Counted from the stretch's first letter, positions 2,909 through 34,970 are shown. The stretch: DNA of 64,000 nt from Dongiaceae bacterium (GCA_040878185.1 JBBDMS010000021.1:52667-116666), one strand, 5' to 3'. Numbers and translations: made by a program. The notes: generated from the letters alone by a model not told the origin.

Positions 2909-4078
2909 ATGCGAATATCATCCCTGCAATATGGCCCGATTGGGGCAGGAATGGCTCATACGATGGACTATGATGCACCGGACACAGAGTGGATGACCAT
3001 CGTGACCGAGACGATACAGGAACAGGTCGGAACAGCCCTGCCGCGCGTCTGGCTGCTGCTCGGCAATCGCGCCGGCGACAATGCACAGATCGCAGCGCTG
3101 GGTGAAGCGCTCGGCTGGCCGGTCGAGATCAAGCACCTCACCTTCAACGCCTTGCACCACAACCGTAACCTGTTCCTCGGCGCCTCGCGCCGGACGCTGG
3201 ACCGCGCCAAGTCCGACAAACTGGACGCGCCCTGGCCGGATCTGGTCATCGCCGCGGGACGGCGCAGCGCACCGATCGCGCGATGGGTCCGGCGCCGTTC
3301 CGGCGGCAAGACCCGCCTTGTCCATATCGGGCGGCCCTGGGCGCCGGCGGGCTGGTTCGACCTCATCATCACGACCCCGCAATACGGCATGCGCTGGCGC
3401 CCGAACGTGCTGGTCAACGCAGCACCCCTGCACGCCATGACGCCCGAGCGCATGGAGGTGGCCGCCACGCTCTGGCAGTCGACGCTGGCCCACCTGCCCC
3501 GGCCCTGGACCGCGCTTTTGATCGGTGGCCCGAGCGCCCCCTACCGGTTCGGTCCGGCCGAAGTCCGCGCGCTGATCGACCAGGCGGTCGCCACGACACG
3601 GGCGAGCGGCGGCAGCCTGCTGGTGACCACCAGCGGACGGACCCCCGGCTCGGTCGGCCCGGCGCTCGAAGCCTGGCTCGGCGATGTCGCGCACCATCTC
3701 TTTTTGTGGCGCAAGGGCCAGGGCGACAATCCCTATTACGGTTACCTCGCTTTGGCCGACCGGTTCATCGTCACCGGCGACAGCGTGTCGATGATGACAG
3801 AGGCGACCGCGACCGGACGGCCGGTCGCGATCTATCGGCCGGCCGAGCGGCGGCGTCTGATCGGCAAGCGGGCGACGCGCGTGCCGCCGCTGCGCTGGCT
3901 GGTCGATGTCGGACTGTTGCCCCATCCGCGCGACATCGGCGCGTTCTGCGACCGCCTCGTCGCGTCGGGCCGCGCTTATTATCTCGGCGATCCGCTACCC
4001 GAGCGCAGCAGTCCCGCGCCCGAAGACATGAGCCGCGCCGTCGAGCATGTGCGCGCTTTGTTCAAGACGGAAGGTTGA
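2909..4078 (+). CDS. ELM1/DUF1022-family protein (predicted GT-B-like glycosyltransferase); start uncertain (2909, 2951, 2963 or 2993)
   Basis: LLLGNRAGDNAQIAALGEALGWP near the N-terminus and VTGDSVSMMTEA near the C-terminus are typical of bacterial 'mitochondrial fission ELM1' family proteins. Divergent from the a2M gene. Confidence 0.6.
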   Translation: MRISSLQYGPIGAGMAHTMDYDAPDTEWMTIVTETIQEQVGTALPRVWLLLGNRAGDNAQIAALGEALGWPVEIKHLTFNALHHNRNLFLGASRRTLDRAKSDKLDAPWPDLVIAAGRRSAPIARWVRRRSGGKTRLVHIGRPWAPAGWFDLIITTPQYGMRWRPNVLVNAAPLHAMTPERMEVAATLWQSTLAHLPRPWTALLIGGPSAPYRFGPAEVRALIDQAVATTRASGGSLLVTTSGRTPGSVGPALEAWLGDVAHHLFLWRKGQGDNPYYGYLALADRFIVTGDSVSMMTEATATGRPVAIYRPAERRRLIGKRATRVPPLRWLVDVGLLPHPRDIGAFCDRLVASGRAYYLGDPLPERSSPAPEDMSRAVEHVRALFKTEG

Positions 4079-4109
4079 CTGCGGCAGCGGCGATTCAGGC
4101 GGCGGCAAA

Positions 4110-5000
4110 TCAGGCAGCAGCCAAGGGCGGGGTGCGGCGCAACAGATCGAGGGCGTCGTGGCGCAGATGGTTCTGGGCCATTTCCTTGCGGATCAGATCC
4201 TCGCCGACGATCCCCTTCTCCAGGCACTCGCGCAGCAGGCCAAAGAAGAAGCGCTCCTGATTGGGATCGGGATGCGGACGATAGGACGTGACGGCCGGGA
4301 TCGGCACGATCCGCGTCAGCCAGTCGGCGGGCACGATGCCGAGCAGCCGCGCGCGTAGCGTGAAGTCGACCGGCAGGCCGGTCTTCCAGGGCTGGGTCCG
4401 ACGCTTGGTGTTGTGCAGCAGCCTTGTGTTCGCATCGAGATGATCGAAATCGTTCCACATCGGCTCCAGATCGCCGATCGACACGCGCGGCTCGTACTGA
4501 AGCTGGGTCCATTTCAGATAGTCGCGCTTGAATGCAAACAGCTCGTCGAACTGCTCGGCGCAGCGCCAGTGCCGCAGCTTCGCGCAATCGAGCAGCATCA
4601 CCGACGTCGCCTTATATTGTTCGCTGCCGTTATGGCCGGGCCGCGGCCGGGCCCAGATGGCCTTGTCCTGCATATCGCGATCGAGCAGTTCCCAGATATC
4701 GCCGACCGCGAAGATATCCGGGTCCATGATGACGGCGCGGCCTTCGTATCCCATCAGTTCGGGCGGCAAGAACCGCAGCGGCGTGAAGCTCTGCAGATCG
4801 TCCATCTCCCAGACGCGCTTTTCGTTGCCGCGCAGGAAGCGCTGGCCTTCGCGCGCCTTGAGAAAATCGAAATCCTCGGCATGCAGAATCCGGATCTCGA
4901 ACCGGTCGGCATGGCGTGAATTGCGCTCGAGCGAATAGGCCGAGGCGATGGCCCCGATCCGCTGGCGTCGATTGGTGTGGATGAAGACGCAGGATCGCAA
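4110..5000 (-). CDS. GT8-like nucleotide-diphospho-sugar glycosyltransferase (putative)
   Basis: TTG start. DxD-type motif VIMDPDIFAVGDIWELL and SVMLLDCAKL resemble GT8 (LYLDxDxxV ... GVMLINL). Family assignment made by eye only. Confidence 0.45.
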   Translation of the reverse strand: MRSCVFIHTNRRQRIGAIASAYSLERNSRHADRFEIRILHAEDFDFLKAREGQRFLRGNEKRVWEMDDLQSFTPLRFLPPELMGYEGRAVIMDPDIFAVGDIWELLDRDMQDKAIWARPRPGHNGSEQYKATSVMLLDCAKLRHWRCAEQFDELFAFKRDYLKWTQLQYEPRVSIGDLEPMWNDFDHLDANTRLLHNTKRRTQPWKTGLPVDFTLRARLLGIVPADWLTRIVPIPAVTSYRPHPDPNQERFFFGLLRECLEKGIVGEDLIRKEMAQNHLRHDALDLLRRTPPLAAA

Positions 5001-5111
5001 CCCGACTCTCCTTGGTTCTGGCCGAATGATCTAACCCCGCCGGCGGTTCCGACTCAACCCGGACGGACGCCCGGCCCGCCGGCGGGCCGCCCGCTCCGCG
5101 GGCTTGCGCGC

Positions 5112-6179
5112 CTAGCGGGTTCCCGCCGGCCTGCTGCCCAGCGGCGTCAGGGCAACCTGCTTCAGCGCATCGTACAGCCCTCCGCATTCCGCCTTCAGGC
5201 GCGCCATCTGAGCCGGATCGATATCGGGCTGCCGCGTGAGTACGCCGGAATCGACCTGGCCGATGCTCTTGTCGAAACTGCTGTTCGATTCGATCGGCGC
5301 GCTGTTGAAGGTCGGTATCGTCATCGCCGGATGGAAGTCGATGCCGATCTTCATGCAGAGCGCGCGCATCATGCCGGGCGTGTCGCGGACCAGTTCGTCG
5401 AGACCGATGCAGATCACTTTGTCGCCGTAAGTCCGTTTGTTGCGCAAGGTCGCCTCGGCGGACCGGCGCCACCAGGCGATCGCCGTTTCGAACTGGTCAT
5501 ATTGCCGCTTGCGCGCCTTGCCGCGATTTTTCGACAAAGCCGAGGCGAGCCAGCTCACCGGATCGCGCACAATCGAGACCAGATGCCCATCGGGATAGTC
5601 GCGGAAATATCGCGCGATGGAATCCGGATTCATCGCAAGGCCGGGGCAGAAGGCGCTGATACAGGCCGCCTCGTCATAGGATACGATCCTGTTGCCCCAG
5701 GACTTGAAGAACGCGTGGTAGAAGCAATCGAGCGCGCCGCGCTGCGTTGCCGGCCGCTTCGCCTCGATCAGGTTGCAGAAGATGCGATGGTGAAGCCCGA
5801 CATCGTAGTCGAACGCGTGCATCCGGGTCGGGTTCTTGGCCTTTGAATAACCCGTGCGCGCCCGTTCGATAAAACGCCCGTCGACAAGATAGCGAAACAA
5901 AGCGCGTGCGCCTTTCGTCGGATCGAGATCGGGCCAGTCGGCCTTGCCCCTGGCAATATGCATGTCACCGGGATAGGCGGCGATCTGCGGATGACCGTCG
6001 AGAAGCTGGCTGAGCAGTGTGCCGCCCGAGCGATGGATCTGCGAGATCAGAATGACATTGCGACCAACCGGGCCCAGATCGGAGGCGATATCCGGCACCG
6101 GCGATCGGGGCGATGGAATGAGCCAGCGGTCGCGCAGCCGCTTGAAGCGTCGAAGGCCGGAACTTACCGCGCGAACCAT
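5112..6179 (-). CDS. sulfotransferase family protein (1 of 3)
   Basis: PAPS 5'-phosphosulfate loop HRSGGTLLSQLL and 3'-phosphate motif VSIVRDPVSW. ATG start at 6179. Confidence 0.7.
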   Translation of the reverse strand: MVRAVSSGLRRFKRLRDRWLIPSPRSPVPDIASDLGPVGRNVILISQIHRSGGTLLSQLLDGHPQIAAYPGDMHIARGKADWPDLDPTKGARALFRYLVDGRFIERARTGYSKAKNPTRMHAFDYDVGLHHRIFCNLIEAKRPATQRGALDCFYHAFFKSWGNRIVSYDEAACISAFCPGLAMNPDSIARYFRDYPDGHLVSIVRDPVSWLASALSKNRGKARKRQYDQFETAIAWWRRSAEATLRNKRTYGDKVICIGLDELVRDTPGMMRALCMKIGIDFHPAMTIPTFNSAPIESNSSFDKSIGQVDSGVLTRQPDIDPAQMARLKAECGGLYDALKQVALTPLGSRPAGTR

Positions 6180-6488
6180 GTTCCGATGCCTGCTGCGATC
6201 GTGAAAGGGACCGGCGCCGCGTCCGGAATGCTATGCAACCGGTCCGGCGAGGCCCGGATGGAGTCGCAAGCCAGCCCTCTAAAGTCAACGGATTTGTCGG
6301 TTTTCGGGCCCGCCCGGGGGCCCGAAGCGCGTCCATTTGGCGCAGCTAGGACCGGCCACCCCACCGCATCCTAGGGCTGTAACCCGCCGGCAATTGCCAA
6401 TCCCATGGGCACGCTGGTACCACCAGCCCGCATTTCACGGCCATGCCGCCCGTTGTCACGGTGGGCCCGAACACGCTCCGGAGCATGG

Positions 6489-7595
6489 ATGCCCAGTATC
6501 AAGATCATCGGCGCCGGTTCGATCGGCAACCACCTCGCCCATGCCGCCCGTTCCTTTGGCTGGCAGGTGACGCTGACCGACATCGACCCCGCGGCGCTCG
6601 AACGTTCGCGCGAGAGCATCTATCCGCAGCGTTACGGCGCATGGGACGATGCGATCCGGCTCAAGGATACGCGCGAGGCAATGGGCGACGCGGCCGATGT
6701 GGTCTTCATCGGTACGCCGCCCGACAGCCATATGAAAATCGCATCGGCGGTGCTCGATGCCGCGGCGCCGCGCGCGCTGGTAATCGAGAAGCCGCTCTGC
6801 GGCCCCGATCTTGCCGGCTGCGAGGAACTCTGGCAGCGCACGCGCAAGGCCGGCATCTTCGCCGGCGTCGGATACAATCACACGCTCGGTGCCAATACGG
6901 TGCTTGCCGAGCAGGCGCTGGCGACCGGCACGATCGGCGAGGTCGCGACCTTGTCGGCGCGCACGCGCGAACATTGGGGCGGCATCTTCAAGGCGCACTC
7001 CTGGCTTGCCGGTCCGGCCGACAGCTATCTCGGCTATTGGGCGCGCGGCGGCGGCGCGACCGGCGAGCATTCGCACGGCATCAATATGTGGCAGCATTTC
7101 GCGCATCGCATCGGTGCGGGCAAGGTCGTCGAAGTCAGCGCGACGATGGACATGGTGCGCGACGGCAAGACCGAATATGACCGGCTCGCGCTGATATCGC
7201 TCAAGACCAGCGAAGGGCTGACAGGCGACGTGATCCAGGATGTCGTGACGGCGCCGGCCCAGAAATCGGTGCGCATCCAGGGGCGCGACGGTTTCATCGA
7301 ATGGCGCGTCAATTATGGCCCCAATGTCGATGCGGTGATTACCGGCAGCGGTGACAAGGCGAACGAGCCGACATTGCTGCCGAAGACCCGGGCCGACGAC
7401 TTCAAGGCCGAGATCGCCCATCTTGCCGGCGTTCTCGATGGTGCTTTCGGGGGCAAGGCCGAGGGCTCACCCATTGCGCTCGAACGCGGCCTTGATACGA
7501 TGATGGTCATCGCCGCGGCCTTCAAATCCCATCAGACCGGGCGGCGGGTCGCCATCGACTGGCGCACCGGCTATCGTCCCGACGCCCTGCGCTGA
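6489..7595 (+). CDS. Gfo/Idh/MocA-family NAD(P)-dependent oxidoreductase
   Basis: Rossmann N-terminus MPSIKIIGAGSIGNHLA, then VVFIGTPPDSH and EKPL motifs. I prefer the internal ATG at 6489 to the track start at 6405. Confidence 0.7.
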   Translation: MPSIKIIGAGSIGNHLAHAARSFGWQVTLTDIDPAALERSRESIYPQRYGAWDDAIRLKDTREAMGDAADVVFIGTPPDSHMKIASAVLDAAAPRALVIEKPLCGPDLAGCEELWQRTRKAGIFAGVGYNHTLGANTVLAEQALATGTIGEVATLSARTREHWGGIFKAHSWLAGPADSYLGYWARGGGATGEHSHGINMWQHFAHRIGAGKVVEVSATMDMVRDGKTEYDRLALISLKTSEGLTGDVIQDVVTAPAQKSVRIQGRDGFIEWRVNYGPNVDAVITGSGDKANEPTLLPKTRADDFKAEIAHLAGVLDGAFGGKAEGSPIALERGLDTMMVIAAAFKSHQTGRRVAIDWRTGYRPDALR

Positions 7596-7622: not shown

Positions 7623-9155
7623 ATGCAGAAACCGTTCAAGTTCAACGACCTGTTCATCTACGACCTGGCCAATAATCACCAGGGCGATATCGAGCACGCA
7701 TCCAACATCATTCGCGGGATCGGCAAGGCGAACGCCGACGCCGGCGCGCGTGGCGCGTTCAAGTTCCAGTTTCGCCAGCTCGACACGTTCATTCATCCCG
7801 ACTACCAGACCCGGAACGATCTCAAGTTCATTAAACGGTTCAACGAAACCCGGATGTCGATGGACGATTTCCGGAAACTTGCCGACCTGATCCGCGCGCA
7901 GGGCATGCTCACCATGTGCACGCCGTTCGACGAGGAATCGGTCGACGTCATCTGCGACATGGGCCTCGACATCATCAAGGTGGCGAGCTGCTCGGCCGAC
8001 GATCGGCCGCTGCTCGAGAAGGTCGCGCGCGTCAATCGGCCGCTGGTCGTGTCAACGGCGGGCCTGCGGATCGAGGAGATCGACTGGCTGGTTAATTTCC
8101 TCGAAAGCGAGCGTGCGGATTTCGCGCTGATGCATTGCATCGCGGAGTACCCGACCGACGACGACAAGCTGCAGCTCAACCAGATCGAGTTTCTGCGTGA
8201 CCGCTATCGCACCGTTCCGATCGGCTGGTCGACGCATGAGGATCCGGACAACACGGACCCGATCAAGCTCGCCTACGCCAAGGGCGCACGGCTGTTCGAA
8301 CGGCATGTCGGCATCAAGACCGACAAGTATCCGCTGAACGCCTATTCCTCGACGCCCGAGCAGATCGCAAAATGGCTCGCCGCGCATAAATATGCGAAGG
8401 GCATGCTGGGCGCGGCCGAACGCGCGCCCTCCTCGCCGCTCGAACGCAAGACGCTCAAGGAACTGAAGCGCGGCGTCTATGCCAAGCGCACGCTCGCGAA
8501 GGGCAAGCCGATCAAGCGCGAGGATGTGTTCTTTGCGATGCCGGTCGAGGAGGATCAGCTTCTCAGCGGCCAGTGGCGCCCGGGCATGATCGCGCCCGCC
8601 GACATCGCCGCGAAGGCGGCGTTGCCCGAAAGCATGTCCAAGGAAGCGCTGACCGACGAACAACTCGTCTATCAGATCATGCTGCAGGTCCGCGCCATGC
8701 TGAACAAGGCGAACATCCATATCAATGAGGATGCATCGATCGAGATCTCGCATCATTACGGGTTGCGGCGTTTCCGCGAATATGGCGCGGTCATCGTCAC
8801 CTGCATCAACCGCAGTTACGCGAAGAAGCTGGTGATCCAGCTGCCGCGCCAGAAACATCCCTATCACCATCACAAGCAGAAGGAAGAAACCTTCCAGCTT
8901 CTGGATGGCGACATGGAGATCGTGAAGAACGGCGAGCGCATCTCGATGCGGCCGGGCGACACGTTCCTGGTCGAGCCCGACGCCTGGCACAAGTTCCATA
9001 CGTTGGACGGCGCCATCGTCGAGGAAGTCTCGACCACGCATTTCAACAACGATTCCTTCTACGAAGATCCGGAGATCGCCAAGAAGGAACGCCATGAGCG
9101 CAAGACCCAGGTCGACAACTGGCTGGCATATTTCCGGTCCAAGCATGCGCTTTAA
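7623..9155 (+). CDS. neuB: NeuB-family nonulosonate (sialic-acid-type) synthase fused to a C-terminal cupin domain
   Basis: NeuB-like TIM barrel (IIKVASCSADD, MHCIAEYPT, GWSTHE) and a SAF-like segment (GVYAKRTLAKGKPIKREDVFF). An extra ~150 aa forms a cupin: HPYHHHKQKEETF...GDTFLVEPDAWHKFH...EEVSTTHFNNDSFYED. Confidence 0.8.
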   Translation: MQKPFKFNDLFIYDLANNHQGDIEHASNIIRGIGKANADAGARGAFKFQFRQLDTFIHPDYQTRNDLKFIKRFNETRMSMDDFRKLADLIRAQGMLTMCTPFDEESVDVICDMGLDIIKVASCSADDRPLLEKVARVNRPLVVSTAGLRIEEIDWLVNFLESERADFALMHCIAEYPTDDDKLQLNQIEFLRDRYRTVPIGWSTHEDPDNTDPIKLAYAKGARLFERHVGIKTDKYPLNAYSSTPEQIAKWLAAHKYAKGMLGAAERAPSSPLERKTLKELKRGVYAKRTLAKGKPIKREDVFFAMPVEEDQLLSGQWRPGMIAPADIAAKAALPESMSKEALTDEQLVYQIMLQVRAMLNKANIHINEDASIEISHHYGLRRFREYGAVIVTCINRSYAKKLVIQLPRQKHPYHHHKQKEETFQLLDGDMEIVKNGERISMRPGDTFLVEPDAWHKFHTLDGAIVEEVSTTHFNNDSFYEDPEIAKKERHERKTQVDNWLAYFRSKHAL

Positions 9156-9762
9156 GGCGGTCGTCTTCGATTTCGACGGCACGCTTATCGATTCGGCCGA
9201 CGCCAAGCGCGATGCGTTCTTCCGCCTGTTTCCGGCGGCGGAGCCTTATCGCGCCATCGTCAATCGCGTACTGACCGCGGACCCGGACGGATCGCGCCAT
9301 GTCGTCATCCCGCGCATGATCGAAGCGATGACCGCTAAAAAGCTCGCCCTTCCGCACGGCCATAATGCGACCGACCGCATCGGTGCCTATGCGCAGGCAG
9401 TCTATGCGGCGCAGCGCGCGGCCGCGGAATGCCCCGGCGCCGAAACCCTGCTGCGCGCGCTCAAGGGTCACGCAGCCCTCTATATCAGCTCGAACACCCC
9501 CGAACCCGATCTCGGCACGCTGGTTGCCGCGCGAGGCTGGAGCGAACTGGTTGACGGTCTCTTCGGTCATCCGCGCGACAAGAGCGAAACGCTCGCGTTG
9601 CTGGTCGAGCGTCACGATGCGGCGAAGGACGAGATCGCCGTTGTAGGCGATGGCGAGAGCGACGAACGCGCGGCATACGCGATCGGCTGTCCGTTCTTCC
9701 GGGTCTGCGGCCCCAAGGCACTCGCCGATGTCGGGCGCAAGCTCGGGCTCGAACATGTTTGA
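9145..9762 (+). CDS. HAD-superfamily (subfamily IA-like) phosphatase
   Basis: Motif I VVFDFDGTLID, motif II ISSNTP, motif IV VVGDGESD. Its ATG at 9145 overlaps the neuB stop (9153-9155). Confidence 0.75.
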   Translation: MRFKAVVFDFDGTLIDSADAKRDAFFRLFPAAEPYRAIVNRVLTADPDGSRHVVIPRMIEAMTAKKLALPHGHNATDRIGAYAQAVYAAQRAAAECPGAETLLRALKGHAALYISSNTPEPDLGTLVAARGWSELVDGLFGHPRDKSETLALLVERHDAAKDEIAVVGDGESDERAAYAIGCPFFRVCGPKALADVGRKLGLEHV

Positions 9763-10474: not shown

Positions 10475-10484
10475 CCGCCGCGCC

Positions 10485-13873: not shown

Positions 13874-14202
13874 GAAATGGCCTGCAACGAGCGGGTCAGC
13901 CCGATCCACCTCCGCGTTCCGGCGCGGTGTCACGATATTGACCCGCCAATTGCGGCGGGGTTCCCGTATTCCCGCTTTCCCAGACGCGCCATTCACCGTT
14001 AGTCTTTGGAGAGATTGACTGATTCTTCCCGATTTGATCTCGCGCAATCGGGTAACCTTGGGCGATCCGGCCGGCGATGTTCGCGGAGTTCGCCACTTTC
14101 GCCCCAAAAGAGACCGATGAACGCAACCCGGCAGACCGGAATCCTTTCTGAAAGCGCACGTCGAACCGCGCCTTGCCTTTCGGCTTTTGGTAAACCCCGA
14201 TC

Positions 14203-15222: not shown

Positions 15223-15332
15223 GCTCGAAATCGCACAATCGCTGTGTTAGGTTCGCGCGGCCTGCGAACCTGTCCCACCACCGCGCTTCCGGCCGCGCCA
15301 CGCGGCCCGAACCCGATCGAGCCCGCCCATTA

Positions 15333-21779: not shown

Positions 21780-21782
21780 TCC

Positions 21783-22733: not shown

Positions 22734-22739
22734 ATCGAG

Positions 22740-22769: not shown

Positions 22770-22869
22770 ACTAAACCCCTGACCTAATTGGAATCTACGG
22801 CTGTCCAGGCCACGACGCGCGTCGCGGTATTTGGATTCGTGGAGCGATCGAGTCGAGGCAGCGTTGAGA

Positions 22870-23121: not shown

Positions 23122-23125
23122 GACG

Positions 23126-27522: not shown

Positions 27523-27595
27523 GAGAGAATCTGGCCGCAATCCGGGGATGAGTTTGAAGGCCGCATGGGCCGCCGCTTGACCGAACCGGCCGGCC

Positions 27596-28579
27596 TTGGG
27601 ACAAGACCAGCCGACCCGCTCTTATAACCGCCCACTGGACTCCCGCCAATTGTTCACCCTGGCCCATCTTTCCGATCCGCATTTGGCCGGCTGGCCCCTG
27701 CCCGGCCTGCGCGCGATCGCCAACAAGCGGGCCTTCGGCCTTCTGTCCTGGCAATTGCGCCGGCGGCGCATCCATCTGTCGAGCGTGCTCGCCGCTCTTT
27801 GCGCGGATCTTCGGAAGGCGGCCCCCGATCACACGGTCATTACCGGCGATATCGTCAATATCTCGCTGCCCGAAGAGTTCGCGCGCGCGACCCAATGGCT
27901 GGGCGCGTTCGGGACACCCGAGGCGTTGACGGTGATCCCGGGCAATCACGATGCGTATATCGACCTGCCCTGGGACGAGACGATCGGCCACTGGCGATGT
28001 TACATGCGCGACGAACCGGCAGCGAGCGCGATCGGGAAGCCGTTCGAGGGGCCCGACGACTTCCCGTTCGTGCGGCGTCGCGGCCGGATCGCTCTCGTGG
28101 GCACGTCGAGCGCCTGCGCGATGCCGATCGGCAGCGCGGCCGGCCGCCTCGGTGCCCCGCAGATCGAACGACTGCGCCATCGGCTCGACGAACTCGGCAA
28201 GGAAAATCTGTTCCGGGTCGTGCTGATCCATCATCCGCCGTTCGAGGATCGCCATCATCGCCGCAAGGAACTCGAAGATATCGTCGAGCTGCGCGCCGCG
28301 ATTGCCGCGAGCGGCGCCGAACTGGTCCTGCATGGGCACACACACCGTTCGAGCCTGAACCGCATCGCCGTGCCGGATGGCACGGCGCCCGTCATCGGCG
28401 TCGCTTCAGCATCGGCTCGTGCCTGGGCCAACAAGGATCCGGCGCGCTATCATCTTTACCGCATCGAACCCGCCGGCGATGGCTGGCGGGTGGAAGTTGA
28501 GGTCCGCACCGTCACCGTCACGCTCGATCGATTCGAACGGACCGGTGGTTTCCGACTGGATGTCCCGCTGGCCGCATAA
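27596..28579 (+). CDS. calcineurin-like metallophosphoesterase
   Basis: LSDPHL, ITGDIVN, GNHD, IHHPP, LHGHTHR motifs. TTG start (uncertain). Confidence 0.75.
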   Translation: MGQDQPTRSYNRPLDSRQLFTLAHLSDPHLAGWPLPGLRAIANKRAFGLLSWQLRRRRIHLSSVLAALCADLRKAAPDHTVITGDIVNISLPEEFARATQWLGAFGTPEALTVIPGNHDAYIDLPWDETIGHWRCYMRDEPAASAIGKPFEGPDDFPFVRRRGRIALVGTSSACAMPIGSAAGRLGAPQIERLRHRLDELGKENLFRVVLIHHPPFEDRHHRRKELEDIVELRAAIAASGAELVLHGHTHRSSLNRIAVPDGTAPVIGVASASARAWANKDPARYHLYRIEPAGDGWRVEVEVRTVTVTLDRFERTGGFRLDVPLAA

Positions 28580-28649
28580 AATCGGCAGGCCGGGCGGAAC
28601 GCGTCAACCTTCCGGCCCGTGCTAGGTTGCGGTCGAACCAAGGAATGAG

Positions 28650-29099
28650 ATGGCCGACGCCGGCATCAACGCGACCATGAAGACATTCGGCCATCCGGAT
28701 ACGGTTCTGGCCGAATATCCCCATTGGGTGGTCCTGCTTCGCCCGCAGCAGGCGACGCTTGGTGCACTGGTGCTCGCCGCGCGCGGCCCGGCGACGCGCT
28801 TTTCCGATCTCGACGCGGCCGCCATGGCGGGATTACACAATGCAATCGCCGACATCGAGCGGACGCTCATGTCCTTGTTCACCTACGACAAGATCAACTA
28901 TCTGATGCTGATGATGGTCGATCCGCATGTGCATATGCATGTGATTCCCCGCTATGCCGCGAAACGCGCGTTCGAAAGCGTCGAGTTTCTGGATCCGGGC
29001 TGGCCGCGCACGCCCGATCTCGCGCATGCGACCACTGTCGACGATGCGTTGCGGCAACGCCTGGCGACCATGCTGCGCGATGCATGGCCGCGGCGCTGA
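28650..29099 (+). CDS. HIT-family (histidine triad) nucleotide hydrolase/transferase
   Basis: Histidine triad DPHVHMHVIPR. AAGGAA RBS upstream of the ATG. Confidence 0.7.
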   Translation: MADAGINATMKTFGHPDTVLAEYPHWVVLLRPQQATLGALVLAARGPATRFSDLDAAAMAGLHNAIADIERTLMSLFTYDKINYLMLMMVDPHVHMHVIPRYAAKRAFESVEFLDPGWPRTPDLAHATTVDDALRQRLATMLRDAWPRR

Positions 29100-29105
29100 T
29101 CGACG

Positions 29106-30296
29106 ATGACCCTGCTCGATCGCTATATCCTCAGCCGCATCATGTGGCCGCTGTTCGGCACGGTGGCGATCGCGCTGATGGCGCTGCTGCTGGAGCGGAT
29201 GGTGCGGCTGCTCGACTTCGTCGTCGCAAAGGGCGGCCCGATCATCTTCGTGCTGCGGATGCTGGCCAATCTCATCCCGCATTATCTCGGCCTCGCACTG
29301 CCGCTCGCCTTCTTCATCGGCATCATTCTGGCGATCAGCCGCCTCAGCGCCGACAGCGAGATCGACGCGATGAACGCGACCGGCGTCTCGTTGCATCGGC
29401 TGGTGGCGCCGATCATGCTGGTCGCGATCATGCTGGTCGCCTGCGGCAGCATCATCTTCGGGTTCCTTCAACCCTATACCCGCTACGCCTATCGCGCGCT
29501 GGTCTATGTGGTGACCGAAACCGCGTGGGAATCGGCCCTCGAACGCGGCTCATTCTTCACCGGGTTCGGCAATTTCACGATCATGGCCAACGACATCGCG
29601 GATGGCGGCCGAGTGCTGAGTGGGATTTTCGTGCATGAGGAACGCCCGTCTGGCGGTTCGATCACGACGACCGCGGAGACGGGTCGCGTGTTTCGCTCGA
29701 CCGACGATCTTGCGTTGGTGCTCCGCCTCGAGAACGGGATTCGTGTCGATGCCGGTCTGATCGGCAGTGAGGCGACGGTTCTGTCCTTTGACTCACTCAC
29801 GCTGCCGCTTGACGATTCGCTCGGGCCGAGTCCGTTCCGCATGCGCGGCGATTCCGATCGCGAGATGACTATTCCCGAATTGTGGAACGCGATCGAGAAC
29901 CCGCCACCCGATATCGACAAAGTGCGCTTCGAGACGGAACTGCATGCCCGCGTCGTGCGAACCCTGTCGTTTATTTTCCTGCCGCTGCTGGCAGCCCCGC
30001 TGGCGATGACGACGCGGCGCAGCCGGCGCGGCGTCAGCCTCGGCAGCGGCATCGTCATATTGCTGATCTACCACTACCTGCTGCAGCTCGGCGAAGGGCT
30101 GAGCGATCAGGGCCGCCTCTCGCCCTGGATCGCGCTCTGGACGCCGTTCTTCGTTTTCCTGACTCTCAGCACTTGGTGTTTCTGGGTAACCAGCGTGCGG
30201 CCAGGTTCGAACCCGCTCAATTGGCTGCTCAGCGGCCTCGACGATGTTTACGGAAGCATCATCTCGTTCGGCCAACGCCGGCGGGAGGCGACATGA
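29106..30296 (+). CDS. lptF: LPS export ABC transporter permease LptF
   Basis: YjgP/YjgQ family: MTLLDRYILSRI..., six TM segments and a periplasmic beta-jellyroll region. Confidence 0.8.
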   Translation: MTLLDRYILSRIMWPLFGTVAIALMALLLERMVRLLDFVVAKGGPIIFVLRMLANLIPHYLGLALPLAFFIGIILAISRLSADSEIDAMNATGVSLHRLVAPIMLVAIMLVACGSIIFGFLQPYTRYAYRALVYVVTETAWESALERGSFFTGFGNFTIMANDIADGGRVLSGIFVHEERPSGGSITTTAETGRVFRSTDDLALVLRLENGIRVDAGLIGSEATVLSFDSLTLPLDDSLGPSPFRMRGDSDREMTIPELWNAIENPPPDIDKVRFETELHARVVRTLSFIFLPLLAAPLAMTTRRSRRGVSLGSGIVILLIYHYLLQLGEGLSDQGRLSPWIALWTPFFVFLTLSTWCFWVTSVRPGSNPLNWLLSGLDDVYGSIISFGQRRREAT

Positions 30297-31387
30297 CCTG
30301 GACGCTGACGCGCTACATATCGCGCCTCTTTCTCGGGAACCTGACCGCCATCGTGATCGGCTTTGCCGGGTTGCTGCAGCTGCTCGATCTGCTGAACAAC
30401 GCCGACCGGCTGTTCGCCCGGCACGGCGACAGCCTCTGGGTGCTCGCACGCTATGCGATGCTGCGCATGCCGGAAGTGTTCGGTTTCATACTGCCCTTCG
30501 CGACCCTGATCGCAACATTGCTGACGCTGGCACGCCTCGCGCAGAACAGCGAGATCCTCGCCGCCAAGGCGGCGGGACTTTCCTTTTACCGGATCCTGCT
30601 CTGCTTCCTGCCGGCGGCCGCTCTGGTGGCGGTGGTGAATTTCTACGTCGTCGATCGGGCGACGCCGCTCACCCAGCGCACGCTGATCGACTGGGATGCG
30701 GAAGCAGATTCTCTGTCCGACCAGCCGGCCGCGGACACCAGCGAAGGCGTATGGATCCGCGACGGGCTGTCGCTGGTTCGGGTTTCCCTGGTTCTCAATC
30801 AGGGCCGCGAGCTGCATGACGTCACGTTTTTCGTCCGCGACGAAGACGGCAATCTCGCCAAGCGCATCACCGCCGACGTCGCACTCTATCTCGAGAACGG
30901 CCGCTGGCAGCTCTACGACGTGGAAACACTGGTTATGGAGCGGCATGCCGGCGGCGAGTTCACGCGTCAGGCGACCGATGTGTGGGAGGGCACGCTGGTG
31001 CCCGGTCACTACGCCGATATCGTCGCCCCACCCACGAGCCTGACGCTGGATCAGCTTGAAGCCTTCACGCAAGCCGAAGGCGAAATCGGCAACCGGCCGG
31101 ACTATTACTATGAGACCTGGCTGCACAAGCGATACGCCGTGCCGGTCGCGGTGTTCATCATGGTGATCCTCGCAGCCCCCATGGCCCAGACGCTGCGGCG
31201 GAACCAGCGCATGGCGATGGGCCTCGCCGCCGGTGTCGGCATGGGGTTCCTCTATTTCGTCACCGACGGGGTGTGTCAGGCGCTTGGCGAGACGGGGGCC
31301 ATTCCGGCAGCCGTAGCGGCCTGGAGCCCGGGGCTCCTGTTTCTCAGCTTCGGGCTGGCGGGGTTGATCCGGATCGAAGGCTACTAG
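30293..31387 (+). CDS. lptG: LPS export ABC transporter permease LptG
   Basis: MTWTLTRYISRLFLGN.... ATGA overlap with the lptF stop. The track ORF from 29882 is over-extended. Confidence 0.8.
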   Translation: MTWTLTRYISRLFLGNLTAIVIGFAGLLQLLDLLNNADRLFARHGDSLWVLARYAMLRMPEVFGFILPFATLIATLLTLARLAQNSEILAAKAAGLSFYRILLCFLPAAALVAVVNFYVVDRATPLTQRTLIDWDAEADSLSDQPAADTSEGVWIRDGLSLVRVSLVLNQGRELHDVTFFVRDEDGNLAKRITADVALYLENGRWQLYDVETLVMERHAGGEFTRQATDVWEGTLVPGHYADIVAPPTSLTLDQLEAFTQAEGEIGNRPDYYYETWLHKRYAVPVAVFIMVILAAPMAQTLRRNQRMAMGLAAGVGMGFLYFVTDGVCQALGETGAIPAAVAAWSPGLLFLSFGLAGLIRIEGY

Positions 31388-31479
31388 CGGGCCGGTCGAA
31401 GGGCGAAAACCGCGACATTACAACGCGTTGTCGGTAGGGTGCCTTGCCGGAACCCCGGTCGAGAGCTAGATTGGGCGGC

Positions 31480-32259
31480 ATGAGCTTCTGGACTCGCACC
31501 CACAATCTTTCGCGCATGTCGCTCGGCGATCTGCTGCGCGTCTTCTTCACCTATCCGGCGGTCATCGCCTACCTGCTGTTCGGCATCGCCGCAGCAGCGG
31601 CCGCTGCCTATTTCTATCGGGCCGGCGACTGGCTCGGCGTCCTGGTCGCAATCGGCCTTGCGGTCGTCATCTATCCGCTGGTCTGGTACGTCCTGCATCG
31701 CTGGGTGCTGCACAGCCGCTATCTCTATCGTAGCCCGCTGACGGCCAAGACCTGGAAGCGTATCCATTTCGACCATCATCAGGATCCGTACGATCTACGC
31801 GTGCTGTTTGGCGCGCTGCATACAACGCTGCCGACGATCGCAATCGCAACGGCGCCGATCGGCTGGCTTGTCGGTGGCTGGAGCGGCGCCGCGGCCGCGC
31901 TGTCGACCGGATTGCTGACCACCTGCTTCTACGAGTTCTGCCATTGCGTGCAGCACCTCAATACGAAGCCCCGCACGACCTTCCTGCAGCACATCAAGCG
32001 CCTGCATCTCGCGCATCACTTCCACAACGAGCAGGGCAATTTCGGTATCACCAATTTCCTCTGGGACCGCTGGCTCGGCACTTTCTATGAATCGCCGCGC
32101 CAGGTGACGAAGAGCCCGACCGTGTTCAATCTCGGTTACACCGAGGAACAGGCCGCCATTTATCCGTGGGTGGCCGCACTCTCCGGCGGCACGCGCGGCG
32201 ACCAGAACCCGCGCCGCTTCCGTGTCGATCCCGACGTTCGGGGCGACCGTGCCGCCTGA
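31480..32259 (+). CDS. fatty acid hydroxylase superfamily (sterol desaturase-like) membrane di-iron enzyme; candidate sphingolipid/acyl hydroxylase
   Basis: His boxes HRWVLH, HFDHH, HLAHHFH. ATG at 31480. Confidence 0.7.
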   Translation: MSFWTRTHNLSRMSLGDLLRVFFTYPAVIAYLLFGIAAAAAAAYFYRAGDWLGVLVAIGLAVVIYPLVWYVLHRWVLHSRYLYRSPLTAKTWKRIHFDHHQDPYDLRVLFGALHTTLPTIAIATAPIGWLVGGWSGAAAALSTGLLTTCFYEFCHCVQHLNTKPRTTFLQHIKRLHLAHHFHNEQGNFGITNFLWDRWLGTFYESPRQVTKSPTVFNLGYTEEQAAIYPWVAALSGGTRGDQNPRRFRVDPDVRGDRAA

Positions 32260-32271
32260 GCGACACGCCGC

Positions 32272-33429
32272 TTGCCCACGTCTGCCGACATCCGCATCGT
32301 TCCGGCACAATCGAATCCGGCCCGTCGCGATTTCCTGAAACTGCCGCTGACGCTCTATGCCTGTGCTCCGGGCTATGCGCCCGGCCTGCTGATGGAGCGC
32401 AGGGCTGCGATCGACCCCGCCCGCAATCCCTTTTTCGAGCATGCCGAGGCGGCATTCTGGGTCGCCTATCGCGGCGACAAACCGGTCGGCCGCATCAGCG
32501 CGCAGGTCGATCGTCTCGCGCGCGAGCGATACGGCGCCGATCTCGGCCATTTCGGCTATCTCGATGCGATCGACGATCCGGCGGTGTTCGCGGCCTTGTT
32601 CGCAACGGCCGAGGATTGGCTGCGCGCGCGCGGCACGAAGCGCGTCCAGGGTCCGTTCAGCCTTTCTATCAATGAGGAAACCGGCCTGCTGGTCGACGGC
32701 TTCGATACCCGGCCGATGCTGATGATGAGCTATCACCCGTCGTTCGCGCGCGCCCATGTCGAAGCGAGGGGCTATGCCAAGGCGAAGGACGTCATCGCCT
32801 ATGACTATGACGTGACGCAGACGCTGCCGATCGACAGTATGCGTTTGATCGAGCGCGCGAAGGCCGATCTCGACATCCGGCTGCGGCCGCTCGACATGCG
32901 CCGCTATAACGAGGATCTGAGGATCATCCTCGACATCTTCAACGACGCGTGGGCGGACAATTGGGGCTTCATCCCGATGACCGAGGCGGAGGTCGCCCAC
33001 ACCGCGCACGAGATGCGGCAGATCATCGTGCCGGATCTGGTCTGGATCGCCGAAATCGACGGCGAACCGGTCAGCATGATCGTCTGCCTGCCCAACCTGC
33101 TCGAGGCGACGGCAGATCTCCGCGGCAGCCTGCTACCGTTCGGCTGGGCGAAACTGCTCTGGCGGCTCAAGGTCCGGGGGCTGCATACCGGGCGCGTGCC
33201 GCTGTTCGGCCTGCGCCGGCGCTATCACCGCTCGCCCTATGGCGCGGCCGTGATCTTCATGCTGCTCGATGCACTGCGACGAAGCGGCGTCGCACGCGGC
33301 ATCCGCAGCGCGGAGCTGTCCTGGATTCTCGAAGATAATTGGGCGATCCGATCGATCATCGAGCGTCTTGGCGGCCGACCGTACAAGACCTACCGCGTCT
33401 TTGAAAATACGCTCGCACCGCCATCATGA
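32272..33429 (+). CDS. large GNAT-fold N-acyltransferase (bacterial ceramide synthase bCerS candidate)
   Basis: TTG start. ~385 aa with tandem acyl-CoA N-acyltransferase-like halves (FWVAYRGDKPVGRISA..., LVWIAEIDGEPVSMIVCLPN...). Size and genomic context match the GNAT-type ceramide synthase of Caulobacter (from memory). Confidence 0.5.
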   Translation: MPTSADIRIVPAQSNPARRDFLKLPLTLYACAPGYAPGLLMERRAAIDPARNPFFEHAEAAFWVAYRGDKPVGRISAQVDRLARERYGADLGHFGYLDAIDDPAVFAALFATAEDWLRARGTKRVQGPFSLSINEETGLLVDGFDTRPMLMMSYHPSFARAHVEARGYAKAKDVIAYDYDVTQTLPIDSMRLIERAKADLDIRLRPLDMRRYNEDLRIILDIFNDAWADNWGFIPMTEAEVAHTAHEMRQIIVPDLVWIAEIDGEPVSMIVCLPNLLEATADLRGSLLPFGWAKLLWRLKVRGLHTGRVPLFGLRRRYHRSPYGAAVIFMLLDALRRSGVARGIRSAELSWILEDNWAIRSIIERLGGRPYKTYRVFENTLAPPS

Positions 33430-34223
33430 ACGAGCGGCTCACGGTGCTGCTGCTGGCGGGGTCGCGCGGGCCCGCCGATCCCGTTGCGCAAGCGGCCGAG
33501 GTGCCGGTCAAGGCTCTCGCCCCGGTGCGCGGGCGCGCCATGATCGAGCGCGTGGTCGATACGCTGCAGCGTTATGAGCGGATCGGCCGCATCGTCATCG
33601 CAACAGACGACCGGCCGGAAGCCGCGGCGCAGTTCGAGCGGCTGGCCCGCCGCGCCGGCGTCGAGCTGATGGCGCAGGCGCAGTCGCCGGCCGCAACCGT
33701 AAGCGCCGCCCTTGCGCATATCGGGGATGCTGGCTTTCCGATTCTGGTTACCACGGCGGATCATCCGCTGCTGACCGCCGACATGATCGAAACGCTGCTG
33801 AACGCCAGCCTGGCCGATGCCGACATCGCCGTTGCGCTCGCCGATGCGGACAATGTCGCCGCCGCATATCCCAACTCGATCCGCACGGTGCTGAAACTCG
33901 GATCGGGGCGATATTGCGGCTGCAATCTCTTCCTGCTGCAGCATCCGCGCGCCGGCGGCGCGATCGCGTTCTGGCGCAGGATGGAACGCAACCGGAAAAA
34001 GCCCTGGCGGCTCGCTGCGGCGATCGGCCCGAAGACGCTGATGCTCTATTTGCTGGGGCGTCTCGATCTAACGGCGGCCTTCGCGCGGCTCTCGGCGCTC
34101 AGCGCCAGCAATATCCAGCCGGTGATCCTGCCGCAGCCGGAAGCGGCGATCGATGTCGACAAACCGGCCGACCTCGCTTTGGCCGAGCGCATTCTCGCCG
34201 CACGCGAGCGACCCGAAAGCTAG
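33426..34223 (+). CDS. MobA-like NTP-transferase-fold nucleotidyltransferase
   Basis: LLLAGSRG...KAL, VTTADHPLL. ATGA overlap with the upstream GNAT stop. Confidence 0.55.
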   Translation: MNERLTVLLLAGSRGPADPVAQAAEVPVKALAPVRGRAMIERVVDTLQRYERIGRIVIATDDRPEAAAQFERLARRAGVELMAQAQSPAATVSAALAHIGDAGFPILVTTADHPLLTADMIETLLNASLADADIAVALADADNVAAAYPNSIRTVLKLGSGRYCGCNLFLLQHPRAGGAIAFWRRMERNRKKPWRLAAAIGPKTLMLYLLGRLDLTAAFARLSALSASNIQPVILPQPEAAIDVDKPADLALAERILAARERPES

Positions 34224-34244
34224 GTCGTCGCGAACGAGTCTCGG

Positions 34245-34970
34245 CTACCAGCCGCGCACCATCCGTTCGGCCTGTTGCAGATCTTCGTGGAAGTCAATCT
34301 CGCCCCATTGCAGGCCTTCGATCGAGGCGGTCTCGACCGTGCCCTCGCGCGCAAGGATGTCGATGACCTTGAGATACCACCATTTGAGGCCGTCGGGCGT
34401 GTGCATGGTGCGATCGATCGCCTCGGCGAAAAGACGTGGCCCTGCGCCGCGAAAGAGGAGCATGCCGATCGATTCCCCGTTGACCCGATCGAGCAGCAGC
34501 GTCTTGCCGATCTCACGCAACCGCGTGCCCTCGGTGCGGACCTTCATATCGTCGGCATCGTACTCGGCCTTGCGATCGATCGTGACGGTGATCGGTGCCG
34601 CCGGGCTTGCGAGCAGGCGCGCCAGCACCGCCGGCTCGAACAATGTGTCGCCGTTCAGGATGATGAAATCGCGATCCATCTCACCGCGCGCGAGCCAGCA
34701 GCTTCCGAGATTGTCGGCGACGTTGAAGAACGGATTGAAAATCGTCCGGATCCGGAGCGACGGGCCGGCGAGCGTCGCGAGATGCGCCTCGACCAGAGCC
34801 GCCTGGAAACCGAGCACGACCGCGATCTCGTCGACGCCGCCGGCGGCGAGCTGCTTCACCTGCCACTCGATGACCGTGCGCGGGCCGACCGGCAGCATGC
34901 ATTTCGGTCGGTCCTTGGTCAGCGGCAGCAGGCGCGAGCCCTGGCCGGCACTGAGGATGAGGGCGCGCAT
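34245..34970 (-). CDS. LicC/sugar-phosphate-type nucleotidyl(cytidylyl)transferase
   Basis: MRALILSAGQGSRLLPLTKDRPKCML (G-x-G-x-R-L signature) and ILNGDTLF. Confidence 0.7.
   Translation of the reverse strand: MRALILSAGQGSRLLPLTKDRPKCMLPVGPRTVIEWQVKQLAAGGVDEIAVVLGFQAALVEAHLATLAGPSLRIRTIFNPFFNVADNLGSCWLARGEMDRDFIILNGDTLFEPAVLARLLASPAAPITVTIDRKAEYDADDMKVRTEGTRLREIGKTLLLDRVNGESIGMLLFRGAGPRLFAEAIDRTMHTPDGLKWWYLKVIDILAREGTVETASIEGLQWGEIDFHEDLQQAERMVRGW

Follow-up and report, generated by a model that had tools for sequence, protein, structure and literature searches.

The question raised by this locus is whether a group of glycan-tailoring genes, lying directly next to a complete set of genes for ceramide synthesis, serves to build a glycan on a sphingolipid. 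The locus occupies positions 2,909 to 34,970 of a stretch of 64,000 nucleotides from a Dongiaceae bacterium, an alphaproteobacterium of soil type (GCA_040878185.1 JBBDMS010000021.1:52667-116666), and this whole stretch is referred to as the window. Bacterial sphingolipids support the integrity of the outer membrane, and in Caulobacter they can replace lipid A. The original prediction, made from the sequence alone, had interpreted the locus as a system for a glycosphingolipid carrying a nonulosonic acid (NulO) and sulfate. This interpretation is supported here by a recurrent gene linkage, that is, by genomic association only. On this basis, it appears moderately probable that the region from 2.9 to 35 kb directs the synthesis of a sulfated, methylated, and NulO-bearing glycosphingolipid, which would be assembled in the cytoplasm, flipped by an ATP-binding cassette (ABC) exporter, and brought outward by paralogues of Lpt proteins.

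Organization of the Locus

Genes were called by their third-position GC content and annotated with Pfam and NCBIfam. The Pfam scan comprised 61 picked open reading frames (ORFs) and covered almost the entire window, with the ORFs at 57768-58445 and 60596-63819 left out. In the left half, the genes of a NulO supply module were identified together with three candidate glycosyltransferases (GTs), three sulfotransferases, and two methyltransferase fusions, and the right half contains the sphingolipid genes. The gene content predicted for 2.9-35 kb was borne out, except for the 2-oxoglutarate (2OG) oxygenase label of the gene at 11797-12735. Absent from the earlier list were genes for a GFO/MocA oxidoreductase, a metallophosphoesterase, a HIT protein, LptF, LptG, and two nucleotidyltransferases. 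The gene calls agree with the prediction that the genes from 12980 to 24343 are codirectional and closely spaced, since all are located on the plus strand with intergenic gaps of 1-329 nt. The GC content of the window is 60-67%, without a compositional break. A promoter and terminator scan of 12.5-24.6 kb gave the result expected for shuffled sequence, which says nothing on cotranscription.

Recurrent Linkage of the NulO Module to Sphingolipid Genes

The closer relatives of the locus were recovered by searching with the TIGR04396 protein, one of the three candidate glycosyltransferases. By identity of this protein, the relatives are L086 (93%), L081 (70%), and L082 and L083 (64%), and in these loci the whole gene order is kept: sulfotransferase, GFO oxidoreductase, NeuB-cupin synthase, haloacid dehalogenase (HAD)-type phosphatase, cytidine monophosphate (CMP)-transferase, tailoring genes, TIGR04396, an optional methyltransferase, ABC exporter, acyl-acyl carrier protein (ACP) ligase, CerR, ACP, Spt, and cpgCBA. 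Conservation in relatives, which had been proposed as a check of the original prediction, was hence found by this neighbourhood analysis. The tailoring genes turn over among these loci while the backbone order stays; a Kdo-hydroxylase-like gene is added in L081, and the block of L082 contains an asparagine-synthase-like (AsnB-like) gene together with other methyltransferases.

When metagenomes were scanned with a TIGR04396 family alignment, 79 loci were identified, and spt, the ligase, or the bacterial ceramide synthase bCerS is contained in 13 of them. For 14 of the 79 loci, at least 5 kb were available on both sides; one of the three sphingolipid genes is present in 5/14 and NulO genes in 9/14. 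The chance expectation for a random gene in a genome of about 4 Mb is about 0.5% by our own estimate.

Homologues of the TIGR04396 protein with 36-40% identity, located on contigs with 41-51% GC, adjoin ceramide genes directly and in several gene orders. In L123, L142, L146, L152, L153, and L164, the TIGR04396 gene starts approximately 30-130 nt past the stop codon of spt, and it is followed by the genes for the GFO oxidoreductase, NeuB-cupin synthase, HAD phosphatase, and CMP-transferase where the contig reaches. For L124 and L143, tblastn matches also put TIGR04396 directly after spt. The order in L109 is spt, ABC exporter, a phospholipase D (PLD)-like gene, and TIGR04396, and a PLD-like gene likewise intervenes in L134 and L144. 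The module is located ahead of the ligase gene in L140, and it abuts spt on the other strand in L127. At 50% identity, the spt-linked TIGR04396 members form four clusters, and at 70% they form seven; their contigs range from 41 to 64% GC.

The PLD-like gene is a particular feature of the lower-GC loci of marine or sediment type, where it is found immediately upstream of TIGR04396, between spt or the ABC exporter gene and the NulO module (L109:7533-8657, L127:3418-4476, L134:8880-9983, L144:5114-6253, and L164:19169-20389). It codes for a protein of about 350-400 amino acids with a PLDc_2 domain and two HKD stretches, and in these lineages it may serve to form a phospho-linked head group. No PLD-like gene is present in the window.

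As an independent query, the GT8-like protein of the locus was used, and five genomic contexts were sampled, three of which lie inside or beside sphingolipid clusters. In L165 (Rhodovibrionaceae), the entire module is located between cpgA and the ligase gene. In L166, from a gammaproteobacterial metagenome-assembled genome (MAG), genes for three ELM1-like proteins, a GT11, a GT2, a sulfotransferase, and the GT8-like protein are placed between spt-ABC and cpgC-cpgB(kinase)-LptGF. In L168 (Rhodospirillales MAG), genes for the ABC exporter, methyltransferases, ELM1-like, and GT8-like proteins abut a cluster that runs from the fatty-acid hydroxylase (FAH), bCerS, and CpgD genes to spt. The fourth context, L169, contains genes for a GT2, two sulfotransferases, an ABC exporter, two ELM1-like proteins, and the GT8-like protein beside the same alpha-2-macroglobulin (A2M) gene as in the window, with no spt within 10 kb. 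In the fifth, L167, the neighbouring genes are unrelated.

A complete lack of linkage between the two gene sets in related genomes had been named as an outcome that would refute the original prediction, and such a lack is contradicted by the homologues of 36-40% identity and by the three of five GT8-like contexts. Because it recurs both in relatives and in very distant taxa, the juxtaposition of the module and sphingolipid genes is beyond chance.

The Sphingolipid Half of the Locus

Four genes on the plus strand, with roles assigned according to the Caulobacter proteins (PMC11324152) and domains identified by Pfam, code for an AasR-like acyl-ACP synthetase of the AMP-binding ligase type (20010-21779), a CerR-like short-chain dehydrogenase/reductase (21783-22733), an AcpR-like ACP (22870-23121), and Spt, an aminotransferase-class serine palmitoyltransferase (23126-24343). 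On the minus strand follow genes for a CpgC-like protein of 318 amino acids (24426-25382), a CpgB-like ceramide kinase (25406-26365, Pfam DAGK_cat), and a CpgA-like CDP-alcohol phosphotransferase (26362-27540, Pfam CDP-OH_P_transf), all of which were assigned by synteny with the CC_1161 to CC_1159 block. Back on the plus strand, a metallophosphoesterase and a HIT protein were identified by Pfam within 27596-31387, together with paralogues of LptF (29106-30296) and LptG (30293-31387) that match PF03739 with 245 and 242 bits; these four genes correspond to CC_1158 to CC_1155. They are followed by Pfam-assigned genes for a fatty-acid hydroxylase (within 31444-34223), the bCerS homologue (32272-33429), and a CpgD-like cytidylyltransferase (33426-34223, NTP_transf_3; function of CpgD according to PMC12275187), which show 46-53% identity to the genes at the same position in relatives. 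The last gene (34245-34970, minus strand, Pfam NTP_transferase) codes for a nucleotidyltransferase that would be CC_1152-like, judging only by its place after the CpgD-like gene.

All five genes of ceramide synthesis (aasR-cerR-acpR-spt plus cerS) are hence present with the expected domains and in conserved order. For the ligase of the window, no exact sequence match was on record. A ligase-anchored scan of the genome collection, with 10-kb flanks, listed 80 species-representative loci with ligases of at most 60% identity, and the order ligase-CerR-ACP-Spt, with 35-68% identity, was found in most of them, including Caulobacter sp. L018. Most of the 80 loci listed also share the full order, in which ligase-CerR-ACP-Spt is followed by cpgC, the kinase, and the CDP-alcohol phosphotransferase on the opposite strand and then by the genes for the metallophosphoesterase, HIT protein, LptF, LptG, in part FAH, bCerS, and the cytidylyltransferase. 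Among the matches listed, this order is found in Caulobacter, Phenylobacterium, Brevundimonas, and Acetobacteraceae.

Judged by synteny and domain content, the right half corresponds gene for gene to the CC_1165 to CC_1152 region of C. crescentus. In this organism, CC_1160 was identified as a ceramide kinase, and CC_1161, CC_1159, CC_1158, CC_1153, and CC_1152 were found to be needed to form ceramide phosphoglycerate (CPG) and ceramide diphosphoglycerate (CPG2), while CC_1156 and CC_1155, a second set of LptF and LptG, were proposed to be sphingolipid transporters (PMC11324152). CC_1153 (ccna_01210) is the CTP:phosphoglycerate cytidylyltransferase CpgD (PMC12275187). Homologues of cpgA, cpgB, cpgC, cpgD, CC_1152, and CC_1158 are all located at syntenic positions in the window, with the CC_1152-like gene assigned by position. 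The earlier claim of a complete sphingolipid pathway was therefore right with respect to the genes, all of which were found, and it had missed that they form a CPG2 cluster with its own LptF and LptG. This identity matters because it gives the ceramide a known anionic, nonglycan fate that would compete with glycosylation.

The NulO Supply Module

The module is encoded on the plus strand by four genes. The first (6405-7595) codes for an oxidoreductase of the GFO/IDH/MocA family, identified by Pfam, and in 26 loci it accompanies the genes for NeuB, HAD phosphatase, and CMP-transferase. The second (7623-9155) codes for a NeuB-family synthase with a C-terminal cupin domain that resembles lyxose and mannose isomerases (Pfam NeuB, Cupin_2, and Lyx_isomer). 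Its NeuB domain reached 139.7 bits against a Pfam cutoff of 22.1, with 3g8r as the best PDB match, and the protein stays below the NCBIfam equivalog cutoffs for NeuB (TIGR03569, 135.9 versus 399.65) and PseI (TIGR03586, 118.8 versus 340.25). The third gene (9094-9762) codes for a HAD phosphatase (Pfam Hydrolase and HAD_2), and the fourth (9728-10474) for a cytidylyltransferase similar to CMP-nonulosonate synthetases (Pfam CTP_transf_3, 58.4 bits versus 22.6), the best PDB matches of which are CMP-N-acetylneuraminic acid synthetases, ahead of KdsB.

Because no genes for NeuC, an aminotransferase, or an acetyltransferase were identified in the module by the Pfam scan, its product is predicted to be nonaminated, either an acid similar to Kdn (deaminated neuraminic acid) or another, perhaps eight-carbon, ulosonic or nonulosonic acid. 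Neither the equivalog scores nor the accessory genes point specifically to a pathway for N-acetylneuraminic (Neu5Ac), pseudaminic, or legionaminic acid.

Between the NeuB-cupin and HAD genes there is an overlap of 62 nt (9094-9155), which was also identified in the gene calls for L081, and the HAD and CMP-transferase genes share about 35 nt (9728-9762). The overlap shared with L081 is consistent with a tight translational coupling of the sugar pathway.

Candidate Glycosyltransferases

The gene at 15333-16700 (plus strand) codes for a member of TIGR04396, annotated as a surface carbohydrate biosynthesis protein (NCBIfam, 332 bits versus a cutoff of 125). Its sequence is 100% identical to that of MEX0808000.1 from a Dongiaceae MAG. 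No Pfam match was found for it even at E<=10 and no sequence match in the PDB, and it is not a member of GT38, GT52, GT80, or the Pfam sialyltransferases. PDB sequence searches were equally without a match for the ELM1-like protein, the GT8-like protein, and the product of 11797-12735, so that fold prediction was needed for the TIGR04396 and GT8-like proteins. The AlphaFold2 (AF2) model of the TIGR04396 protein, with a mean predicted local distance difference test (pLDDT) score of 86.7, showed two Rossmann domains in a fold of the GT-B type. Using Foldseek, TagF and UDP-GlcNAc 2-epimerases were identified as the nearest structures, with template modelling (TM) scores of approximately 0.45-0.6 for the GT-B-type matches.

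Two motifs are present in the protein, EEEG at residues 84-87 and RPHPSE at residues 234-239. The latter is invariant in 14 sequences, and the glycine of the former is replaced by A or S in many TIGR04396 members. In the bacterial GT-B sialyltransferases, a D/E-D/E-G motif and an HP motif were shown to bind CMP-Neu5Ac (PMC2169525), and EEEG and RPHPSE match these motifs as defined there. The minimal cassettes L084, L142, and L152 encode no other candidate transferase, and the TIGR04396 protein is therefore predicted to be a CMP-ulosonic or CMP-nonulosonic acid transferase. With 6016 representative clusters at a threshold of E<=1e-3, and still 2374 at E<=1e-30, the family is large, and in the literature its name was found in one unrelated genome paper. 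In L119 (8117-11314), an ORF of 1065 amino acids was identified in which a TIGR04396-like region (39% identity) is fused to further sequence.

The GT8-like protein (4110-5000, minus strand, 296 amino acids) was identified by fold prediction as a glycosyltransferase with a GT-A fold and a DxD motif. Its AF2 model (pLDDT 81.6) gave the GT8 enzymes LgtC, GlyE, and glycogenin as top matches in Foldseek, and the motif D93-P94-D95 (DPD) is invariant in the family, which comprises 5967 homologues and is highly conserved, with about 60-65% identity across orders. The match to PF01501 is below the cutoff (12.2 versus 24.3 bits); one homologue has a precomputed PF01501 match.

The third candidate is the ELM1-like protein (2909-4078, plus strand; PF06258, 227 bits versus a cutoff of 27), which is presumed to be a glycosyltransferase by its family membership. 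Its homologues were found beside sphingolipid genes or a TIGR04396 gene in 17 loci.

In some loci, the transferases are present in several copies. L088 (1181-9849) contains three ELM1-like and two GT8-like genes, three ELM1-like genes are located in L166 (3152-13008), and L127 contains two TIGR04396 genes (4488-5858 and 9983-11389). This expansion of paralogues suggests longer or branched glycans in these organisms.

Sulfotransferases, Methyltransferases, and Other Tailoring Genes

Three genes code for sulfotransferases of the Pfam family Sulfotransfer_3, namely those at 5112-6179 (minus strand, 56.3 bits versus a cutoff of 27), 12980-13873 (plus strand, 62.8 bits), and 14203-15222 (plus strand, 29.1 bits versus 27). 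Two further genes code for paralogous fusions of a Pfam methyltransferase domain to a P-loop domain with a Walker-A motif. The first, g09 (10485-11786 in an ORF extending to 11843, minus strand), contains the motif GPTSVGKST, and the second, g14 (16834-18087, plus strand), the motif GLQASGKST. The methyltransferase domain of g14 weakly resembles sugar O-methyltransferases and WbdD. When the P-loop halves were checked for sulfotransferase and APS-kinase domains, only the Walker-A motif and subthreshold AAA matches were identified. Among the loci compared, the fusions are present only in the closest relatives, L081 and L086.

The gene g10 (11797-12735, minus strand) codes for a protein of 312 amino acids without an assigned family. 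The earlier label of a 2OG-oxygenase-like protein is unsupported, since there is no Pfam match at E<=10, no PDB sequence match, and no similarity either to the KdoO-like protein of L081 or to the 2OG gene product of L001. Homologues of g10 were found beside NulO genes in L081, L085, L086, L102, L115, L131, and L150. In L081, a gene of the Kdo-hydroxylase family (7662-8594, PF11004, KdoO-like) is located inside the module and adjoins the g10 homologue. This hints at a modification of the ulosonic acid while it is bound to the lipid, as for the 3-deoxy-manno-octulosonic acid (Kdo) of Kdo2-lipid A.

The ABC Exporter

Directly upstream of the ligase gene, the gene at 18155-19933 (plus strand) codes for an ABC exporter in which the membrane and ATPase domains are fused (Pfam ABC_membrane and ABC_tran). 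It is below the equivalog cutoff for MsbA (TIGR02203, 254.7 versus 602 bits) and also below those for HepA and PglK. The exporter is 41% identical over 547 amino acids to the ABC exporter encoded upstream of the ligase in L001, and homologues of about 40-46% identity accompany the module or sphingolipid genes in 19 loci. It is predicted to be the flippase for the finished lipid.

At the same position upstream of the ligase, Caulobacter L018 contains an LptC gene and a gene for a protein of 443 amino acids without a Pfam match. CC_1166 was proposed to be a 'flippase' (PMC11324152). The L018 protein at the position of CC_1166 (8644-9975) lacks a Pfam match at E<=10 and bears no relation to the ABC exporter of the window; therefore, two different candidate flippases are encoded at one place in the cluster. 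An LptC domain was not identified in any scanned ORF of the window, and the combination of LptC2 and a CC_1166-type protein upstream of the ligase was not encountered.

Domains of Wzx/Wzy, Wzm/Wzt, Wza, Kps, and polyprenyl-phosphate priming transferases were identified in none of the 61 ORFs scanned by Pfam, in agreement with the original prediction, which had recognized no such genes. This bears on the explanation that the locus produces a secreted or capsular sulfated NulO oligo- or polysaccharide, exported by an ABC exporter of the HepA or ChvA type and without a covalent link to ceramide. It would agree with the best NCBIfam match of the exporter, the heterocyst-polysaccharide exporter HepA family (below its cutoff), with a turnover of tailoring genes like that of surface polysaccharide loci, and with the GT2 and UDP-glucose dehydrogenase genes of L085. 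However, a priming transferase, polymerase, copolymerase, or outer-membrane export gene is encoded neither in the scanned ORFs of the window nor in the related loci examined, and the tight, operon-like position after spt is left unexplained, so that this explanation is considered improbable.

Surroundings of the Locus

On the left, an A2M gene (positions 1-2865 of the window, minus strand) abuts the ELM1-like gene; the same ELM1/A2M junction is shared by L169 (12917-20211), where it is followed by a gene for a PbpC-type penicillin-binding protein. On the right, a gene for tRNA-Asn(GTT) at 35221-35295 is located directly past the last gene of the sphingolipid cluster and closes the locus. Apart from this tRNA gene at the right edge, Rfam and tRNA scans identified nothing, and neither an integrase nor a repeat or island boundary was seen. 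The scanned ORFs in the remainder of the window, to about 60.5 kb, code for ordinary metabolic, regulatory, and transport functions, with the exception of one pair of genes about 4 kb past the cluster (38982-41185, minus strand), in which a weakly lipid A acyltransferase-like (LpxL-like) gene (PF03279, E=1e-4) and a gene for a GT4-type glycosyltransferase are coupled in translation.

Proposed Assembly of the Lipid and Nature of the Acceptor

The region from 2.9 to 35 kb may be regarded as a single envelope-lipid locus with two halves, for which gene identities, folds, motifs, and recurrent linkage are shown. AasR, AcpR, Spt, CerR, and bCerS would make (dihydro)ceramide, which could be turned into ceramide (di)phosphoglycerate by the homologues of CpgA-D. 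The left half would serve as an accessory head-group module, in which the GFO oxidoreductase, NeuB-cupin synthase, HAD phosphatase, and cytidylyltransferase would yield a CMP-activated, nonaminated ulosonic or nonulosonic acid of the Kdn-like type. The TIGR04396 protein of the GT-B type would move this sugar onto a sphingolipid, which might be ceramide, ceramide 1-phosphate, or CPG, and the ELM1-like and GT8-like transferases would attach further sugars. The glycan would then be decorated by the three sulfotransferases of the 3'-phosphoadenosine 5'-phosphosulfate (PAPS) type and by the two methyltransferase/P-loop fusions. Because all these enzymes need cytoplasmic donors (CMP- and nucleoside diphosphate (NDP)-sugars, PAPS, and S-adenosylmethionine (SAM)), assembly would occur at the inner leaflet, from where the neighbouring ABC exporter would flip the product, and the LptF and LptG paralogues would take it outward. 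In this scheme, we infer the acceptor, the identity of the sugar, the order of the steps, and the route of export from the gene content. A complex anionic glycosphingolipid would be the most economical explanation because the donors are cytoplasmic, polymer machinery was not found in the scanned ORFs, an ABC exporter and Lpt paralogues are encoded, and the module is interleaved with ceramide genes.

Several observations weigh against this interpretation. Sulfotransferases, NulO genes, methyltransferase fusions, g10, and TIGR04396 were found within 10 kb in 0/80 of the ligase loci listed, and the closer relatives are not among these matches. Since none of the ligase loci among the matches listed contains it, the NulO/TIGR04396 module belongs, as an accessory, to a minority of sphingolipid clusters. 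No spt was found within 10 kb of the module copies with long flanks in L084 (Rhodoligotrophos defluvii), L085, L088, L104, and L169. In L114, also with no spt within 10 kb, a gene for a lipid A-type acyltransferase (PF03279, 100 bits) directly adjoins TIGR04396, an arrangement that fits a lipopolysaccharide (LPS) acceptor in that lineage. Furthermore, the window encodes a complete CPG2 route, and this route uses the C1-hydroxyl group of ceramide. CerR was reported to be periplasmic, although this is disputed, and a periplasmic CerR would complicate a cytoplasmic glycosylation of finished ceramide. Finally, the modelled fold of the TIGR04396 protein also resembles that of UDP-GlcNAc 2-epimerases, so that a biosynthetic role instead of a transferase activity is still to be considered.

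The ligase loci also bear on the view that the adjacency is a matter of chance or an artefact of island insertion without a shared function, for which the module would be expected to be missing from them as it is. In L001, the closest locus among the matches listed (ligase 60%), genes for the ELM1-like and GT8-like proteins and for the ABC exporter are present and g04 to g14 (from the first sulfotransferase to the second methyltransferase fusion) are absent, so that the region of 5.1-18 kb has the appearance of an insert within a simpler gene arrangement. Nevertheless, the linkage was found in at least four deep lineages of TIGR04396 and with several different gene orders, and neither an integrase or repeat boundary nor a shift in composition marks an island, which makes a chance adjacency highly improbable.

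The L114 acyltransferase leads to a further explanation, according to which the module serves to decorate LPS, in its lipid A or core, or some other nonsphingoid lipid anchor, and a shared neighbourhood for outer-leaflet biogenesis, including the LptF and LptG paralogues, accounts for the proximity. It is in line with the PF11004 Kdo-hydroxylase-like gene in the L081 module, with the cassette standing alone in Rhodoligotrophos defluvii and other loci, with the Lpt genes in the same locus, and with the LpxL-like/GT4 pair past the cluster, although this pair was not found in any other locus compared. However, glycosyltransferase and NulO genes are interleaved with sphingolipid genes in at least three ways (L165, L166, and L168), and TIGR04396 directly follows spt in the marine clade. 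Genes for lpx, waaA, or core heptosyltransferases were not seen in these loci, with the exception of the L114 acyltransferase, and a dedicated ABC exporter would duplicate MsbA. Taken together, LPS or another nonsphingoid lipid is regarded as a rather unlikely acceptor.

A wider proposal may also be put forward, though it is less likely than not to hold. The locus could represent a widespread and previously unrecognized class of bacterial outer-membrane lipids, in which the conserved step next to the lipid would be the direct attachment of a CMP-activated Kdn- or Kdo-like acid to a sphingolipid by TIGR04396 proteins. The sugar would then be extended by ELM1-like, GT8-like, or GT4 enzymes and diversified by sulfation and methylation, and the product would be flipped by a dedicated ABC exporter and exported by Lpt paralogues.

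Comparison with Known Systems

The nearest known system is the Caulobacter CC_1168 to CC_1152 cluster (PMC11324152, PMC9393093, and PMC12275187), with which the region of 20-35 kb in the window agrees in its genes and, almost fully, in their order. In contrast to Caulobacter, the window contains an extra fatty-acid hydroxylase gene and has the ABC exporter upstream of the ligase, where no LptC2 and no CC_1166-type 'flippase' were seen. In addition, about 15 kb of genes for glycan, sulfate, and methyl tailoring are present, which Caulobacter is without. If the interpretation is correct, the ABC exporter would be a candidate flippase for bacterial sphingolipids, for which the transport route is still unknown (PMC11324152).

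By comparative genomics, the finding probably belongs with the bacterial glycosphingolipids. The known representatives carry hexoses, hexuronic acids, and hexosamines, and the known enzymes are GT4 members that are unlinked to spt (PMC6445935, PMC13028669). In Caulobacter, GSL-2 is made by the GT4 enzymes Sgt1 and Sgt2 (PMC6445935), and a series of glucuronic acid (GlcA)-ceramides is present in Sphingomonas and Zymomonas (PMC13028669). A paper of 2026 described the glycan diversity of bacterial glycosphingolipids as limited, with several transferases unknown (PMC13028669). Like the predicted lipid, GSL-2 and the GlcA-ceramide series have an anionic sugar on ceramide, depend on the same type of Spt pathway, and have a proposed role in the outer membrane. 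The transferases of the window, in contrast, are TIGR04396, ELM1-like, and GT8-like proteins linked to spt, and the predicted substituents are a CMP-activated ulosonic or nonulosonic acid, sulfate, and methyl groups. In the literature searched, which was mainly open access, no bacterial sphingolipid with a nonulosonic acid or sulfate ester and no such gene linkage was found, in keeping with the original prediction that the lipid is undescribed. If true, the locus would provide the first functional context for TIGR04396, for the GT8-like family, and for bacterial ELM1-like proteins.

With the bacterial GT-B sialyltransferases of GT38, GT52, and GT80 (PMC2169525), the TIGR04396 protein shares the type of fold and the motifs, and its gene adjoins a CMP-NulO supply. 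It differs from them in that no sequence similarity was detectable by Pfam and PDB searches and the glycine of the first motif varies, and its activity is a predicted one. The fusions g09 and g14, which combine a methyltransferase with an NTP-binding domain, recall the methyl(-phosphate) capping enzyme of the WbdD-type O-antigen chain terminators. Here, however, the second domain is a Walker-A P-loop and not protein-kinase-like, and neither a coiled coil nor a Wzm/Wzt partner is present.

A shared logic is apparent with Kdo2-lipid A (WaaA, KdoO, MsbA, and LptB2FGC), where a CMP-activated 2-keto-3-deoxy acid is placed on a membrane lipid at the cytoplasmic face, the product is flipped by an ABC transporter, and LptF and LptG take part in export; a KdoO-like gene is also present in the L081 module. 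Unlike in that system, the synthase of the window is of the NeuB type and not KdsA, the cytidylyltransferase resembles NeuA more than KdsB, a protein other than WaaA is the predicted transferase, the exporter stays below the MsbA cutoff, and the predicted lipid is a sphingolipid. The product would then be a ceramide-based, convergent counterpart of Kdo-lipid A and LPS, and the notion of an outer leaflet that is built on ceramide and resembles LPS would be tied to defined genes.

To the eukaryotic gangliosides and sulfatides, the predicted product is comparable as a ceramide with a nonulosonic acid and/or sulfate esters. None of the enzymes is related, the sugar is likely Kdn-like and nonaminated, and the lipid would be located in a bacterial outer membrane, so that the likeness would be convergent. 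If the interpretation holds, sulfated and sialic-acid-like glycolipids would be present on environmental Proteobacteria, with a bearing on resistance to phages and antimicrobial peptides and on immune recognition, and the predicted lipid would represent a bacterial analogue of gangliosides and sulfatides.

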